Assembly (NCBI GenBank): GCA_910584085.1
Contig: CAJTZY010000006.1
Span: forward strand, 668-64,667
Direction of reading: 5' to 3'
DNA from: an uncultured Bacilli bacterium
GTDB lineage: Bacteria; Bacillota_I; Bacilli_A; RF39; UBA660
Length of the DNA stretch: 64,000 nucleotides
The notes under the pieces are model-generated. The model saw only the letters and a program-made list of their open reading frames with translations. It was not told the DNA's origin and made no database searches. The position numbers were made by a program, and so were the translations under genes. Below, piece after piece: positions 18,555-40,898 of the stretch; position 1 is the stretch's first letter, and every line of letters begins with the position of its first letter.

Positions 18555-18878
18555 ATGGATTGTATACCATATATAAATGATTTAAATATTGAAATAAATA
18601 TATTAAAAGATGTTAAGGCAAATGGTAAATGTGATATAGATGAAATAAATAAGCAAATTGAAGAAAAGGAGAATTTAATTAATAAATGCAAAGAAAATTT
18701 ATCTAAATTATCAGTTAATAGTATTGAATATAGATTATATTTAAAAATTTTAAATGGTGTAAAACCAAGTAGAGCAGTGGAAGAAATTGCAAATGAAAAC
18801 TATTTGAAGGACATTACACCAGCAACTCCGAGTAAGATTTGGGAAAAATATTATAAAAAAATTAAAAAAATTACATAA
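18555..18878 (+). CDS. possible late-gene transcriptional regulator (small sigma-region-4/ArpU-like HTH); tentative
   Basis: 107 aa. C-terminal HTH-like segment IEYRLYLKILNGVKPSRAVEEIANENYL. It is the last gene of the early/replication block and is followed immediately by the 20-nt GGGAGT motif. Confidence 0.3.
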   Translation: MDCIPYINDLNIEINILKDVKANGKCDIDEINKQIEEKENLINKCKENLSKLSVNSIEYRLYLKILNGVKPSRAVEEIANENYLKDITPATPSKIWEKYYKKIKKIT

Positions 18879-18880
18879 AT

Positions 18881-18900
18881 GGGAGTGAAAAGGGAGTAAA
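18881..18900 (+). repeat. 20-nt motif GGGAGTGAAAAGGGAGTAAA, copy 1
   Basis: Perfectly identical to 27781-27800. Internally a tandem GGGAGTRAA. Confidence 0.8.
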
Positions 18901-19010
18901 TTCCTTGATACAATATAATCGTGATAGCAATATCACTGTAACATTATGTTACATCCTTTCTATGGTCAGGAAGCATTTTTTGAATCTCCTTTCATGCTTC
19001 CTCCTTATAT

Positions 19011-19087
19011 TGCTACTGGGTGAAACGGATAATCACGACAGACTCATAATCTGTAAATAACGAGTTCGACTCTCGTAGGAGCAACCA
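19011..19087 (+). tRNA. phage tRNA with anticodon CAU (elongator Met or lysidine-dependent Ile2)
   Basis: Hand-folded cloverleaf: acceptor TGCTACT/AGGAGCA (one A-G mismatch), D arm GTGA-aacggataa-TCAC, anticodon arm ACAGA-CTCATAA-TCTGT, T arm ACGAG-TTCGACT-CTCGT, encoded CCA. Confidence 0.8.
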
Positions 19088-20953
19088 AAATAATGTTCTT
19101 TGGCAAATTGATAATTGAACTATATGACAAACTATAACGCAATATAGTATAGATATTATCTTGTTCTTATTACCTTTGAGAGCGATTTTAAAGGGGATTG
19201 AGTGCATTTTGTTGGAAACAGCGAAATGGTAACCTACAAAGTAGGGAAAAAGATAATAGTGGTTTATTGTAGAGTTTTATAAAATACAGAACTAATCGTT
19301 GACAATCATAACCACCTATGGTAAATAGGGCGATAACTTATTAGTAGTACTTTGTGTGGTTACAAAGAGTGAAAATAAGAATACCAATAAGTCAATTATG
19401 CAGTTGATACCTAGTGATAGGAGTATAAGATTAGAAACTGGTACAAGTAGCACAAACTTGCATAAAAAAAGCAAATTTGTAAATGAAAGATATAATGGTA
19501 TATTTGAATTTAACATCTAAAGTGTGTGAAAGTTGTTGGTAAAGAATCCAATGTAGTTTTAGGTTTATTGGAAATGATGGACTATAGTCTTTGAGCTATA
19601 GTATCCTGCATTTTTGATAAGCCAGGTATTAGAGGAAATGGGGTCGCAACCTATCAGGACTAATACTTGCTAGTGATTGAATAATAAATGGCTATAGTAA
19701 ATTAGTGTGAGAAACACCAATTATCAATTTGTCAAAGGGCATTATATGTCCTTTACCTCCAAATAATAAAGCACTATCTTTAGTAGGTAGTGTACTGAAT
19801 AATATGCATGAAACAGACTACAGTGTGAGCAATCGTAGGTGTGAGCATAGTAGCCAATGGGAACGGTTATTATTTAGTACAGTATCTATTAAGATACAAG
19901 ATACATAAATAGTCGTAGGAGTTTTAGCGTATTAAATTACGGTTTAGAAAGCCTTTACATACATATTTAATGTATTCACATAAGATGTGTCTTAATGTAA
20001 GAAAAACTAAGACGTAAGGTTGATGACCTTTGTATTAATGGATTGCAACGTAAACAGTCAGCTATATTCTAGAGATAGTGGTTGTAGTCTTGGGATTGCG
20101 GTCGGTGGAAATCCGATATGATGGGGGTCGGTATTCCCAGCCTAGCTTCGGCGACCTATAAGGTTAAACACAAAATAGAAAGCACCCATAGCCTAATACA
20201 AAAAATAGGCAGATACCATATCATCTTTATAGGTGATATAGAGCAATAAATAAAAATGGTGAGAATTACAAGGGAGAAAGCCACCTCTCTACCGTATTGT
20301 TATACAGTGGTGTTTAGCATGGAAAGTATAACGAGTAAAGTAATCAAATTTATTGTTCTATATTGTCTATAAGACAATGAAATGCGAGGATGACTACTCG
20401 GAATTGATTAGACGTTGTCTTTTCAATTTGTTGTTCAAGAACTTTCTATTTATCTTGGCTAGGGCAAGCTTACGAACAAAGTAGATGCGAAATGAGTTAA
20501 AGATCTTGTCAGTAGAGAATAACTGTCAGTATTTGCTACTAATAGCAAAAGCCCATTTAATAATTAATTAAAAGTTGAAAGTATCTTTTATCAAAACAAT
20601 AACGTATGGCGCTATTGTCGACTATAAGCCCCCAACGTGAGTTAGATATAAAAACATAGTCTATCGGTGCGTTTTCGCAAGCGAGTTTAATATGTCCGTA
20701 TGACGTGAGGAATAAAAGTGGTGAGTTATTCCAAGATAACCCAAATAAAAAAACTCGTAGATATTGTTCTCGTGAACGAACAGAGATTCACGTTGGTTAT
20801 GACAAACATACGCTGAGCTATCAGTAGTAATTCTAAGTAAGTTGTCGTAATGGGCAACCACGGTTATTGCTTAGAGAAATAGTGGAACGTCTAACAGTGT
20901 CTATGGGTTAGGCAAAGTCCGATTGAGTAAGGTAGGTTTTCAATTGGTTTAAT
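19088..20953 (+). ncRNA. ~1.87-kb unknown, probably highly structured non-coding RNA region (candidate giant ornate RNA, GOLLD/ROOL-like context)
   Basis: No + strand ORF of 60 aa or more. G+C is clearly elevated: hand counts give 26/60 at 19801 and 33/60 at 20101, against 15/60 at coding line 30001. It contains numerous local helices and is bracketed by tRNA or tRNA-like genes and an intrinsic terminator. The strand is inferred from the flanking tRNAs and terminator. Confidence 0.5.
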
Positions 20954-21059
20954 CGGTAAGTAGCAAAGTGAAAATGCTTGCATCAAAGGGTGTAGAGAAA
21001 GGTAATATCCGTCGGGAATAACCTCATACGTTAGGTTCAATTCCTAACCTTGCCGACCA
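20954..21059 (+). ncRNA. aberrant tRNA-like element 1
   Basis: Canonical 3' half (GTTAGG-TTCAATT-CCTAAC, acceptor CTTGCCG, A, CCA) pairs with CGGTAAG at the 5' end, and a D-arm-like hairpin is present. About 47 nt replace a normal anticodon/variable region, so no clean cloverleaf forms. Confidence 0.35.
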
Positions 21060-21064
21060 AATAT

Positions 21065-21162
21065 GGGGCGTGTAGCTTAATGGGAAAAGCTTGTGTCGTA
21101 ATAACTGGGACATGACACTTAATCGGCAGTTGATATTGGTTCGAGTCCAATCATATGCCCCT
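21065..21162 (+). ncRNA. aberrant tRNA-like element 2
   Basis: GGGGCGT-GT-AGCT-taatgggaaa-AGCT D arm and a canonical T arm ATTGG-TTCGAGT-CCAAT. However, the GTGTC ... GACAC stem encloses 16 nt, there is a long variable hairpin, and 3 extra nt precede the acceptor 3' strand ATGCCCC. Confidence 0.35.
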
Positions 21163-21182
21163 AATCAATTTGAATTTATGAA

Positions 21183-21209
21183 GGGAGAATAATATAATTC
21201 TCTCTTTTT
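21183..21209 (+). terminator. Rho-independent terminator closing the RNA locus
   Basis: GGGAGAAT/ATTCTCTC stem with a 6-nt loop and T5. Confidence 0.6.
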
Positions 21210-21229
21210 ATATAGAAAGAAGTGATAAA

Positions 21230-21721
21230 ATGATTTTGTCAATAGATCCTGGAAACATAGAAAGCGCTTATTGCGTTATAGATGATAGCACATACAAGCC
21301 AATAGAATTCGCAAAAATCAATAATGATGATTTAATTGTAAAAATGATAACAATAATAAAAAAATATGATATTTACACTTTAGTTATAGAAATGGTTGCA
21401 AGTTATGGAATGGCAGTAGGTAAAACAGTTTTTGATACTTGTGTATGGATAGGTAGATTTTATGAACAAGCAATAAAATATATGGGTAGTATTGAATTTA
21501 TATATAGAAAAGATGAAAAAATAAATTTATGTAACTCAATGAAAGCAAAAGATAGTAATATTAGGCAAGCTTTAATAGATAGATTTGGGGAAGTTGGAAC
21601 TAAAAATAATCAGGGATGGTTTTATGGTTTTAAGGCTGATATTTGGGCAAGTTATGCTGTAGGAGTTACTTACTTAGACAAAATAAAGAGTGGAAGTGAC
21701 AAAAATGTCGTATATAAGTAG
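21230..21721 (+). CDS. RuvC-like Holliday-junction resolvase
   Basis: MILSIDPG (catalytic Asp), LVIEMV, FKADIW acidic motifs. The size (163 aa) is typical of phage RuvC-like resolvases. Confidence 0.65.
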   Translation: MILSIDPGNIESAYCVIDDSTYKPIEFAKINNDDLIVKMITIIKKYDIYTLVIEMVASYGMAVGKTVFDTCVWIGRFYEQAIKYMGSIEFIYRKDEKINLCNSMKAKDSNIRQALIDRFGEVGTKNNQGWFYGFKADIWASYAVGVTYLDKIKSGSDKNVVYK

Positions 21722-21944
21722 ATATGATACTAAATTTTTAACATTTATGAATAGGAAATATCAAAAATACAATGTAAATTTTGAATTTTTTGATGATTAC
21801 ATTTTATGGCTATATTACGATTATTTTGGGGAAAATGAAGAACTGTATTATAAACAATTAGAAAAAGATTTATGGAAATATGTAGAGTTTCAAAGTGGAA
21901 AAGAACGAGATAAGAGAGATAGGGTGGATATAAATGAAAGCTAA
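21705..21944 (+). CDS. hypothetical phage protein
   Basis: Start set to ATG 21705 (SD GGAAGTGA). The track start is GTG 21690. Confidence 0.45.
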   Translation: MSYISRYDTKFLTFMNRKYQKYNVNFEFFDDYILWLYYDYFGENEELYYKQLEKDLWKYVEFQSGKERDKRDRVDINES

Positions 21945-22608
21945 TTTAGAAGAGTCAAAATTGAAAAAACAAAGAAAGTTTAATGAAAACAGAGAAAAAG
22001 TTTTGCAGGAAAAAGAAAATCTTGTAAAAAAAATACAGGAAGAGTATAAGGATATGTTATTACCAACCTTAAAAGAAAAAACAAATGAAATAACAAATTT
22101 ACTTGTAGAAAAATTAAAGGCACGTGGAGATAAAGTAAACTCAATTGAAATATTATCGGTTATAGCAAAAAGAAGCCTAGTTGATGTTGTTAAAGGAAAT
22201 GCAAATTCCTATACACCACAAGAGATTATGATAGCATTTAATCTTTATATTCAAATGATAGACAAAATACAAGAATATAGAAATTTTCCTCCAACTGTTG
22301 AAAGTTTTTGTTTATTTTTGGGAATAAGTAGGTCAACTTATAACAATTGGTTGGTAGATTCAGATAGAAAAGATGCTATGGATTATGTACATTCTTATTT
22401 ATTAGGTGTATTAGCAAATGGTGGTTTAACAGGTGAAACAAAAGAAATATCAAGTATGTTTTTACAAAAGACAATGGGTAAGACAGAATTACAACAACCA
22501 ATTCAACATGAAGTAACAGTCAAAACTGATATTGACGCAATACAAAATCAATTAAGTGCATTAAAAAGAGATAATATTATAGAGGGAGAATTTGAAGAGA
22601 ATGAATAA
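21934..22608 (+). CDS. terS: terminase small subunit
   Basis: Central HTH-like PPTVESFCLFLGISRSTYNNW and the following ...SSMFLQKTMGK pattern are typical of Firmicute phage TerS. Size is 224 aa. Confidence 0.6.
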   Translation: MKANLEESKLKKQRKFNENREKVLQEKENLVKKIQEEYKDMLLPTLKEKTNEITNLLVEKLKARGDKVNSIEILSVIAKRSLVDVVKGNANSYTPQEIMIAFNLYIQMIDKIQEYRNFPPTVESFCLFLGISRSTYNNWLVDSDRKDAMDYVHSYLLGVLANGGLTGETKEISSMFLQKTMGKTELQQPIQHEVTVKTDIDAIQNQLSALKRDNIIEGEFEENE

Positions 22609-38726: not shown

Positions 38727-40301
38727 ATGAAAAACGAAGAAGTAAAACCAACTGAAACAACAGTTGAAAATAATACAAATGCACAATTACCTACTAAAGA
38801 ACCTTATGCACCAAAATATGATGATACAAGGTTATATGGTAGAAAAATAATATATGCAGATTATGAGCCAGAAAATATGAATGCAGAAACAATAACAAAA
38901 ATATTAACTGATGTCTTTAGCATTCATTTGCAAAATTCAAGGGAAATAGATTATTTAGAAAAATATTATAAAGGATTTCAACCAATATTAAACAAAATAA
39001 AAGAAGTACGACCAACTATTAACAACAAAGTAGTTGAAAATAACGCTTATTTCTTAGTTGAGTTTAAAAAATCATTTGTATTTGGTAAACCAATTCAATA
39101 TGTGCAACGTGGAGATGTTGCAAATAAAGAGGTTGGAGCATTAAATAGTTATATGCTAGCAGAGGATAAATATCCTAAAGATACAGAACTAGCAGAAGAT
39201 TTATATATTGCTGGGATTGGACATAGATTAGTTCTTCCAGATATAAATGAAGATAGCCCATTTAGTATAGAAAATTTAGATAGCAAAACTACATTTATTG
39301 TTTATTCTAGTAGTTTACCACATAAAAAATTATTTGGTTGTACTTATACTAGAGGGATTAAAGATATAACAATAAAAGGTAGTATTTATACAAACAATGC
39401 TTTTTATAAATTTACAAGTGGAAGTCCATATAGTGCCTTTGATGTTCAATTTGTTAAATGGCACGTTTTAGGAGATATCCCAATATTTGAATACTTTTTA
39501 CATAAAAAAAGATTAGGAATTATCGAAGTCGTACTAGATTTGCTAAATGACATAAATAGAGTAACTTCTAATGAATTAGATGGGTTGGAACAATATGTAC
39601 AAAGTTTACTTGTATTTATAAATCAAGATATTGACAAAGAAGAATTAGAAAAAATGCTTGAAATGAATGCAGTAAAATTATGGTCTCCTGACCCTGGCAG
39701 AAATGCAGATTTAAAACTAATATCTAATGAAATAAATCATGCAAATACAAAAATCATGCACGATAAGTTATTTAACATGGCTTTAAATATTGTAGGAATA
39801 CCTAAAAATAGTGATAAAGCAAGTGGAGGAGATACAGGACAAGCTAGATATTTAGGTGAAGGTTGGACAATGGCAGATGCAAGAGCAGATGGCGATGAAA
39901 TGGAATTTAAACGTTGTTCTAAGCCTGAACTAAAAATGATACTTAGAATATGTAGACTTGCTCCAAATAGTGAAATAAATACATTAACACTTAAAGATAT
40001 AGACCAAAAATTCACTAGAAATAAATCAGATAATTTCTTAGTTAAATCACAAGGAATGATGAATCAAATTCAAAGTGGTGTATCACCTGATGTTGCAATG
40101 ACAACAAGTGGTTTATATAGTGATCCAAATGAAACATTTAATAAATCAATGGAGTTCTATGGTGGTATAGATAATTGGATTAAATTATTCGTTGGACAAG
40201 CACAAAAACAATTAAATGAAAAGAATAGCGATGGAAGTCCTAACAAGGCGACATCTGCCTCAAAAGATGAGTCTGGAGAGGTTAATAAACAAAAAAGTTA
40301 G
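38727..40301 (+). CDS. portal protein
   Basis: 524 aa, immediately after terL. Size and position are typical of SPP1-type portals. Confidence 0.75.
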   Translation: MKNEEVKPTETTVENNTNAQLPTKEPYAPKYDDTRLYGRKIIYADYEPENMNAETITKILTDVFSIHLQNSREIDYLEKYYKGFQPILNKIKEVRPTINNKVVENNAYFLVEFKKSFVFGKPIQYVQRGDVANKEVGALNSYMLAEDKYPKDTELAEDLYIAGIGHRLVLPDINEDSPFSIENLDSKTTFIVYSSSLPHKKLFGCTYTRGIKDITIKGSIYTNNAFYKFTSGSPYSAFDVQFVKWHVLGDIPIFEYFLHKKRLGIIEVVLDLLNDINRVTSNELDGLEQYVQSLLVFINQDIDKEELEKMLEMNAVKLWSPDPGRNADLKLISNEINHANTKIMHDKLFNMALNIVGIPKNSDKASGGDTGQARYLGEGWTMADARADGDEMEFKRCSKPELKMILRICRLAPNSEINTLTLKDIDQKFTRNKSDNFLVKSQGMMNQIQSGVSPDVAMTTSGLYSDPNETFNKSMEFYGGIDNWIKLFVGQAQKQLNEKNSDGSPNKATSASKDESGEVNKQKS

Positions 40302-40497
40302 AGGATAGAAAGACATTGACTATCGAGGCATGACGATGCTTAAGTGTAGGGAAACCGATTAGATGTGGGAAGTGATGCCCCACCTAACTTTATAGGGTTC
40401 ATAGGGTACGGGACTATGATTAAATACGCTCGAATATCTATTTAAAGATGTGTATTGGTAGCCCAGCCAAAGAAACTTTAGAAGCCTTTGGTCTTAT

Positions 40498-40573
40498 GCT
40501 GAAATAGCTCAATTGGTAGAGCAATTGTTTTGTAAGCAATAGGTTGTGAGTTCAAGTCTTACTTTCAGCACCA
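40498..40573 (+). tRNA. phage tRNA-Thr (anticodon UGU)
   Basis: GCTGAAA-TA-GCTC-aattggta-GAGC-A-ATTGT-TTTGTAA-GCAAT-aggtt-GTGAG-TTCAAGT-CTTAC-TTTCAGC-A-CCA. Confidence 0.85.
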
Positions 40574-40574
40574 T

Positions 40575-40667
40575 GTACGGTTACCCAAGTTTGGCTGAAG
40601 GGGACGATTTACTAAATCGTTAGGGTCCTGAGGGACCGCAAAGGTTCGAATCCTTTACCGTACGCCA
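40575..40667 (+). tRNA. phage type-II tRNA, Ser-like, anticodon ACU (A34)
   Basis: GTACGGT-TA-CCC ... GGG-G-ACGAT-TTACTAA-ATCGT, long variable arm GGTCC-tgag-GGACC, T arm AAAGG-TTCGAAT-CCTTT, acceptor ACCGTAC, discriminator G, CCA. Confidence 0.7.
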
Positions 40668-40898
40668 CAAATTTGATTATAGCTACCTTAATGGTAGTGT
40701 ACTGATGAAATGCATAAATATAGGTGCGACTCCTACGAAGGGTTAGAAGCCCTGCGATTTGTTAGAGTAACGAATTTCATTGGTACAGTGCTATTAAACT
40801 AGCATAAATTTGCTCTGTATACCGAGCATAATGGGTATACCACACTACTGTAGAGACGTGGCTACTATAAAAACGTAATGTGTGGGGAAGGTAATTAT

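Follow-up and report, generated by a model that had tools for sequence, protein, structure and literature searches.

A ROOL RNA Among Small Structured RNAs in a Probable Noncoding-RNA Island of a Bacilli Prophage

In this study, we analysed a long gap between the genes of a prophage in an uncultured Bacilli bacterium (GenBank assembly GCA_910584085.1, contig CAJTZY010000006.1). All coordinates refer to the window, the whole stretch of 64,000 nucleotides (nt) that was analysed; the gap runs from a stop codon at 18878 to an ATG at 21230, ~2.35 kilobases (kb). An initial annotation had proposed that 1.87 kb of it forms one giant ornate noncoding RNA, set in the context of the GOLLD and ROOL families as a tandem arrangement, a variant or a new class. 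Our findings support a different model, to which we assign a probability of about 0.72: in the gap, separate RNA genes that fold independently of one another line up on the plus strand and together make up a phage noncoding-RNA island, whose RNAs are processed from one transcript. Its large RNA is, judged by the match to the Rfam model, an ordinary ROOL, and follows a transfer RNA (tRNA) for methionine; the island is modular, and mosaic among related phages; and a cassette that recurs in it covaries and is constrained on the sense strand. The new content is smaller than claimed, and consists of this cassette with swappable inserts, a domain of ~320 nt present in two lineages, an odd tRNA-Leu-like RNA and the architecture of the island itself. 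Of the options first offered, a tandem arrangement comes closest, whereas a new giant class falls away. The parts follow one another in this order:

18882-18920, plus strand: island start with candidate promoter, extended -10 TGATACAAT at 18906-18914
18921-19010, plus strand: conserved leader with three hairpins (18921-18936, 18937-18953, 18968-19002)
19011-19087, plus strand: tRNA-Met(CAU), called by ARAGORN and by the Rfam tRNA model (50.5 bits, cut-off 29)
19090-19745, plus strand: ROOL RNA, Rfam RF03087 match at 19096-19736 plus its extended closing helix
19764-19910, plus strand: cassette copy 1, covariance model R1 60.3 bits, E ~1e-8, fold z = -5.2
19921-20240, plus strand: predicted multi-helix domain of ~320 nt (RNAalifold), including a G+C-rich core at 20090-20160
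20218-20377, plus strand: cassette copy 2, diverged in sequence with the same architecture, inverted repeat I2, fold z = -3.8
20378-20445, plus strand: block B, short and conserved, found in L121 and L122 directly after a cassette P3
20437-20775, plus strand: block C, a patchwork of small conserved hairpins, 17 profile matches over different sub-parts
20758-20952, plus strand: 5' part of block D, hairpin 20772-20792 and others, also in L113 and L118
20953-21059, plus strand: tRNA-like element ending in CCA, minimum-energy fold, z = -3.1
21066-21161, plus strand: conserved RNA resembling tRNA-Leu(UAA), variable arm long, 7-nt anticodon loop replaced by one of 16 nt
21180-21213, plus strand: terminator-like hairpin (21180-21207) and U-run, 11 base pairs (bp), -11.9 kcal/mol, z = -2.95

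A ROOL RNA Behind tRNA-Met

The Rfam model RF03087 matches over positions 1-574 of 574, with 172.7 bits against a gathering cut-off of 99.1 (E = 6e-37). The match is enclosed by an inverted repeat of 28 nt (19090-19117 / 19718-19745, 89% complementary), and this outer helix is paired in the Infernal alignment; the helix pointed out earlier at 19581-19602 lies within ROOL. The tRNA-Met(CAU) read by the initial annotation was recovered by ARAGORN and Rfam at the same place, and the ROOL match begins 9 nt after its end, a distance that is constant (9-13 nt) in the window and in all six relatives with both RNAs mapped. ROOL stands right after the tRNA in 25 of the 37 related islands described below, and is absent in 12. 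In the window it accounts for ~650 of 2350 nt, leaving ~1.4 kb (19746-21160) without a family. Scanned permissively with Rfam at E<=10, 18700-21400 yields just one further match, below threshold, to a tRNA at 21068-21159 (26.2 bits). Of the checks suggested earlier, the models of RNase P, transfer-messenger RNA (tmRNA), group I and II introns and GOLLD have no match in that scan, and ARAGORN called no tmRNA in the region. Thus, the GOLLD/ROOL context first proposed stands in its ROOL half, a full-length ROOL after tRNA-Met in a phage setting, whereas GOLLD gave no match. In two other loci, L082 and L087, ROOL is clear by nhmmer (E ~1e-47), yet the Rfam scan at gathering threshold did not list it, probably owing to its speed filters; a negative Rfam scan at that threshold therefore does not prove absence.

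Related Islands Are Mosaics

The proposed search for homologues succeeded by synteny, with 37 islands recovered, but not by sensitive blastn of both halves against 50,697 GenBank phages, which gave no match. Other routes yielded little of this kind. Through the resolvase gene we reached 79 IMG/VR loci, none of them syntenic, with ROOL in two (elsewhere on the contig) and the downstream blocks in none; exact-protein look-ups returned one near-identical Logan contig only; 7 viral loci reached with a ROOL sequence pattern have isolated ROOLs, none of them accompanied by the downstream blocks; and the search with a 144-amino-acid (aa) upstream protein gave no relatives. The syntenic loci were reached via relatives of the terminase small subunit and of the 107-aa protein encoded next to the gap (alignment A1), and in each a homologue of the latter is followed by a long gap free of open reading frames (ORFs). 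After duplicate removal, 37 distinct islands of 206-1979 nt remained, from IMG/VR viral contigs, gut metagenomes and metagenome-assembled genomes labelled Bacilli, Tenericutes or Clostridia.

These islands have in common a leader (nearly all), one or two tRNAs (Met and/or Gln, in the position equivalent to that of tRNA-Met in the window) and a 3' tail (most); most also carry an ordinary tRNA-Leu(UAA) and tRNA-Ile(UAU) near the 3' end. Between these, the blocks A, B, C, D and E occur in differing combinations, independently of ROOL and of each other, and the genes downstream of the island vary among relatives. Successive parts of the window find their counterparts in different loci:

19039-20240: colinear only in L111 and L128
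20245-20353: recurs in L123
20361-20445: recurs in L121 and L122
20437-20775: 17 partial matches in other islands
20758-21066: recurs in L113, L117 and L118
21054-21229: recurs in many islands

None of the 37 relatives is colinear over the whole interval, the best being L111 with 19039-20240 only; judged by these alignments, a single conserved 1.9-kb RNA is therefore ruled out.

A Recurrent Cassette With Swappable Inserts

Downstream of ROOL, an iterated profile of 19750-20060 uncovered a cassette that is often present in two or three copies per island. In copy 1 its parts are:

19772-19792: P1 hairpin
19791-19804 / 19868-19881: P2 stem, 14 bp
19805-19867: variable insert
19882-19897: P3 hairpin

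The consensus of P1 is CACUAUCU-CUAGU-AGGUAGUG, that of P3 is GUAUCU-AUUAA-AGAUAC, and P2 is a stem of 12-14 bp (UACUGAUGAUAU / AUAUCAUCAGUA) with the variable insert inside. In all, 25 islands contain 30 such units. Their inserts, 25 different ones, measure 46-130 nt, belong to unrelated families and have been exchanged between scaffolds. One insert family carries a tRNA T-arm, GGTTCGATTCC. Inserts of one family, 53 nt long (L091 4617-4732; L098, L110, L126), have a perfect T-arm, AUAGGUUCGAUUCCUAU, stacked on the P2 stem, so that the whole unit looks like a tRNA minihelix whose acceptor stem has been lengthened.

The compensatory changes that the initial annotation called for among homologues were found in the cassette, in the ~320-nt domain and in the tRNA-Leu-like RNA. 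For the cassette, 26 distinct scaffolds were aligned, with only the outermost 4 nt of the insert kept at either end (alignment A2). Paired cells amount to 91.6%, against 31-55% in slid controls; 9 pairs changed on both sides, and the observed values were reached by 0 of 500 shuffles. P2 is 98.3% paired, with compensatory changes in 6 of 12 pairs. G·U occurs 39 times and A·C not once when the sites are taken on the sense strand, against 11 and 31 times on the antisense strand, and over alignment A2 the sense strand holds 73 G·U to 0 A·C. Read from the alignments, this strand bias is the signature of selection on an RNA made from the strand of the tRNA and ROOL.

With R1, a covariance model built from A2, island sequence (0.47 Mb) returned 49 matches, whereas unrelated phage loci (0.91 Mb) returned 1. 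That sole match (L001 12263-12357, minus strand, 37.7 bits), among 86 otherwise unrelated loci, is perhaps a true, if remote, copy. A search for the exact 3' half of the cassette finds it in 41 IMG/VR contigs, where in almost every case it sits between genes and points the same way as its neighbours; of 36 contigs searched, R1 supports ~15 at E<0.001. Rfam 15 offers no family for the cassette sites of the island, and has nothing at E<=1 at the cassettes of L115, an island with three of them. A further copy stands in the window at 40673-40812 (R1 36.9 bits), right after another tRNA pair. It belongs to a second small RNA island of the same prophage, at 40294-40812, whose other members are:

40294-40391: skipping-rope RNA, Rfam 43.1 bits, cut-off 36.7
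40498-40573: tRNA-Thr
40575-40667: 93-nt tRNA called Ser, anticodon ACU

Copy 2 of the main island escapes R1, and consists of:

20218-20239: P1, 9 bp
20240-20251 / 20348-20359: P2, 12 bp
20252-20347: insert, 96 nt
20363-20377: P3, 5 bp, with a UAUAA loop

Its insert is homologous to that of a canonical cassette in L123 (window 20245-20353), and its P1 covaries against L111 (helix 13). The helix noted earlier at 20362-20378 corresponds to its P3.

The Other Blocks

For the ~320-nt domain, RNAalifold predicts 83 pairs in 13 helices, with 13 pairs changed on both sides (0-1 in slid controls) and 98.4% of cells paired; this is good evidence from the alignment that 19921-20240 is structured. The G+C-rich core at 20090-20160, singled out by the initial annotation, falls in helices that covary against L111. 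The permissive Rfam scan found no match to this domain. Two more of the helices proposed at the outset hold in the blocks that follow. That at 20532-20549 belongs to a hairpin of block C, 20526-20549, which covaries (UUUGCUA/UAGCAAA, UUUACUA/UAGUAAA, UUUCAUA/UAUGAAA), and that at 20771-20792 to the hairpin of block D that starts at 20772, with two compensatory changes.

Toward the 3' end, both of the aberrant tRNA-like elements announced earlier are present. The element at 20953-21059 has an 8-bp acceptor-like stem (20953-20960 / 21049-21056), a T-arm (21031-21047) and an encoded CCA (21057-21059); its 3' end, CGACCAAATATG, is kept in L113, L117 and L118. The Rfam tRNA model makes no call here, and ARAGORN a weak one at ps80 only. 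The tRNA-Leu-like RNA at 21066-21161 scores 26.2 bits, below the Rfam cut-off of 29, and departs from a canonical tRNA in this score and in its loop; ARAGORN reports nothing by default and calls it only at the relaxed ps90. It has 9 distinct homologues, all with the 16-nt loop, GUAAUAACUGGGAAAU, and covaries in the anticodon stem (GUGUC/GACAC vs GUAUC/GAUAC) and in the T stem; several homologues encode ACCA. L095 and L129 have both the odd form and a normal tRNA-Leu. An apparent class II tRNA with D-arm GGCGGAAUAGGUAGACGC, T-arm and acceptor GAGUAG/CUACUC, split by an insertion of ~100 nt, was seen in L118 (4905-5287) and L117 (5310-5567); ARAGORN is silent on it.

Start and End of the Island

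A promoter-like match, GTGAAA-18-TACAAT with TG upstream, lies at the island start. The 20-nt motif said to open the unit (GGGAGTGAAAAGGGAGTAAA, GGGAG...GGGAG) is indeed present at 18882-18901, but relatives keep it only loosely: in 29 distinct leaders the TTGATAnnnTATAAT block is kept and the GGGAG repeat is not. The leader itself was found by nhmmer in nearly all syntenic islands. It folds with z = -5.0, and its hairpin 1 covaries (GTGATA/TATCAC, GCAATA/TATTGC, GTAGTA/TACTAC). Two (C)CUCCUUU(C) boxes, ~27 nt apart, occur in nearly all leaders (L089-L142); in the window the CU-rich boxes are at 18954-18960, where the box is degenerate, and at 18986-18993, in the loop of hairpin 18968-19002. 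They resemble the anti-Shine-Dalgarno sequence, and nine leaders of related islands contain AUCACCUCCUUUC, which we take to be the 3' end of Firmicute 16S ribosomal RNA (rRNA), that is, the anti-Shine-Dalgarno sequence. An ORF of 51 aa (18905-19060), with a TTG start ~9 nt past a Shine-Dalgarno-like AAGGGAG, runs through the leader into tRNA-Met; it is probably spurious, because hairpins covary in the leader alignment, which also contains indels of lengths not divisible by three.

The closing intrinsic terminator of the initial annotation was borne out as the 11-bp hairpin at 21180-21207, followed by UUUUUAU, which a strict consensus scan did not list. The tail (window 21118-21222) is kept in most relatives. 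A promoter-like site (TTGAAT-17-TATAAT, 10/12 matches, 21170-21198) overlaps this hairpin upstream of the resolvase gene, and might restart transcription of the packaging genes.

The Gap and Its Flanking Genes

As first described, the gap (18879-21229) is free of plus-strand ORFs of at least 60 aa, the largest having 59, 54 and 51 aa, and its three ORFs of 64-66 aa are all on the minus strand, that at 19013-19207 overlapping the tRNA. The reported switch in base composition was confirmed, with a G+C fraction of 0.31-0.42 across 18750-21300 against 0.20-0.29 in the flanking genes. Folding z-scores (150-nt windows) are mostly negative within the gap, whereas those of the genes on either side lie about 0 or above; folding the whole 1.3 kb to minimum energy gave nothing informative. 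A CRISPR-like or tandem-repeat array was also considered and rejected, the repeat families being chance two-copy matches only.

The flanking genes are phage genes, among them one for SSB, and the gap lies between the replication genes on one side and the Holliday junction resolvase and terminase small subunit on the other:

18555-18878: gene of the 107-aa protein, directly upstream of the gap
21230-21718: Holliday junction resolvase, the "RuvC-like" gene of the initial annotation
21934-22605: terminase small subunit

The 107-aa protein has no match in Pfam, PHROGs or the sequences of the PDB. A single-sequence AlphaFold model is all-helical (predicted local distance difference test score 74), and its best fold matches are small phage sigma-like proteins, none of them significant; from this model, the protein might be a transcription factor for the island or the late genes.

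Alternative Explanations

Several observations could be read in favour of one giant ornate RNA of ~1.9-2.2 kb that forms one unit, whether it represents a new class or a ROOL variant much lengthened at its 3' end: there is one apparent transcription unit, folding z-scores are negative throughout the gap, and some distant stretches of different blocks are complementary (e.g. 20600-20622 / 21011-21033 and 19772-19783 / 20069-20080). Yet ROOL fills all 574 positions of its model and has a closing helix to itself, and among the 37 islands the blocks vary independently: relatives have ROOL without the downstream blocks, blocks without ROOL, or blocks reshuffled, and colinearity ends at 20240 even in L111. 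We consider this original proposal hardly credible. Scarcely better placed is a long structured 5' leader that regulates the resolvase and packaging genes by attenuation or antitermination, without stand-alone RNAs. The site of the island, between replication genes and those of the resolvase and terminase small subunit, would suit it, as would the promoter-like site that overlaps the terminator (21170-21198) and the weak, non-significant likeness of the 107-aa protein to small phage sigma-like proteins; but the island contains bona fide tRNAs and a ROOL, which are stand-alone RNAs elsewhere, the downstream genes vary among relatives, and the cassette is found in many other gene contexts, which makes such a leader very improbable. 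Non-functional filler left by gene loss, from a tRNA array or a protein gene, would account for the location of islands in tRNA arrays, for the two defective-looking tRNA elements and for the T-arm GGTTCGATTCC of one insert family. Both forms of decay were rejected. Matches to the tRNA model at E<=10 are absent from 19737-21060, and six-frame translations of 19737-21229, with 22-45 stops per frame, found no match in Pfam or PHROGs at E<=1, so that the decayed protein-coding gene named at the outset as a refutation is not seen. Compensatory changes in the cassette, the ~320-nt domain and the tRNA-Leu-like RNA, together with a 16-nt loop kept in 9 distinct sequences, also argue against decay, to which we give next to no weight.

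The cassettes, on the other hand, might be miniature mobile DNA elements of the MITE or REPIN kind, or recombination scars, with arms that serve a DNA enzyme and an RNA structure that is incidental. The left half of the cassette is approximately the reverse complement of the right half, and R1 scores on both strands; copies sit at many unrelated intergenic sites, in 41 IMG/VR contigs and at two sites of the window; and inserts have been swapped between scaffolds. However, G·U without A·C on the sense strand, with the reverse on the antisense strand, is what is expected of RNA pairing, not of a DNA palindrome, compensatory changes inside P1 disrupt the pairing of a long palindrome, and copies are nearly always co-oriented with the flanking genes. 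We regard the DNA element as unlikely on its own, and mobility and RNA function could both be true.

The noncoding-RNA island that we prefer also has points against it. Transcript ends, co-transcription and processing are all inferred; the promoter-like matches in the region are not above the number in shuffles, and the call at the island start is a guess; homologues of the ~320-nt domain are colinear in L111 and L128 only, its support comes from two lineages, that of the window and one homologous lineage, and an 18-nt probe of it found two chance matches in IMG/VR, with no extended homology; and the alignments of blocks C and D are patchy. As to the drawing of the cassette with three helices, a single extended hairpin fits the alignment almost equally (91.9% paired), and is the minimum-energy fold of the window copy. 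We nonetheless lean towards the three-helix form on the aligned sequences: the extended hairpin is disfavoured because the compensatory changes inside P1 break its pairing. Columns 15/80 have 13 cells unpaired in it, whereas columns 15/25, as paired in P1, have 3.

A Model for the Island

We propose that the island is transcribed as one precursor and cut into stable RNAs, in the manner of an rRNA/tRNA operon, because it has a single promoter-like site at its start and a single terminator-like hairpin at its end, with none listed between, and because of its interspersed tRNAs and long enclosing stems. RNase P and the enzymes of tRNA 3' ends would excise the tRNAs, and excision of tRNA-Met would set the 5' end of ROOL, which begins 9-13 nt past it. 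The closing stems (28 nt for ROOL, 12-14 bp or more per cassette) may act as processing or insulating stalks, possibly cut by RNase III, each of which would present one variable RNA domain. The conserved arms of the cassette may also be recombination points, and would therefore explain the swapping of inserts between phages.

A further step is more doubtful, and we offer it tentatively, as a possibility rather than an expectation. The cassette could be an undescribed class of phage RNA, a display stalk for swappable domains of 46-130 nt, some of them tRNA-like, borne by many gut phages both within ROOL/tRNA islands and elsewhere between genes; with the tRNA-Leu-like RNA and the leader boxes that mimic 16S rRNA, it could form a toolkit directed at host translation or at tRNA-targeting defence, with ROOL as one component. 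Whatever its role, the cassette is a well-defined new motif candidate that can be sought in phage genomes with the covariance model at hand, and comparison between such islands can now refer to defined parts, namely the leader with its anti-Shine-Dalgarno-like boxes, the tRNA upstream of ROOL and always equally far from it, the cassette and the tRNA-Leu look-alike. Since related phages have islands with or without ROOL, they are natural controls for what ROOL adds.

Comparison With Known Systems

Like phage tRNA arrays and rRNA/tRNA operons, the island has RNA genes on one strand, one promoter-like site and interspersed tRNAs; as in rRNA/tRNA operons, its RNAs are enclosed by long stems formed from their flanks, and some leaders carry AUCACCUCCUUUC. 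It differs from such operons in being without rRNA, and its processing enzymes and cleavage sites are proposed by analogy only. The cassette shares near-palindromic arms, a short variable core and many intergenic copies with MITE and REPIN elements, yet its pairing is strand-specific, tolerating G·U and not A·C, and its flanking hairpins covary internally. The RNA at 21066-21161 has the 7-bp acceptor stem, D-arm, long variable arm and T-arm of a class II tRNA-Leu(UAA), and relatives have a normal tRNA-Leu(UAA) at the equivalent place, whereas the window RNA has the conserved 16-nt loop and scores under the Rfam tRNA cut-off.

GOLLD (RF01998) occurs in phages, with tRNA arrays and sometimes with tRNAs embedded in the RNA (PMC12286853, PMC12990946). 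The island shares this kind of genomic setting, but 18700-21400 gave no match to the GOLLD model at E<=10, and its downstream sequence is modular, not one conserved 3' domain. ROOL is described from phages or prophages, with adjoining tRNAs (Weinberg et al. 2017, PMC5737381; PMC12286853, PMC12990946), and assembles RNA-only nanocages in vitro, as seen by cryo-electron microscopy (PMC12286853). The window RNA agrees with this published setting in its whole-model match, its prophage location and the tRNA directly upstream, but explains no more than ~650 of the 2350 nt of the gap. The published accounts note tRNAs close by, whereas the cassette, the conserved leader and the ~320-nt domain do not appear in them (PMC5737381, PMC12286853, PMC12990946). 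The locus sets ROOL, a large RNA of bacteria and phages with a solved nanocage structure, in a conserved, modular RNA island.

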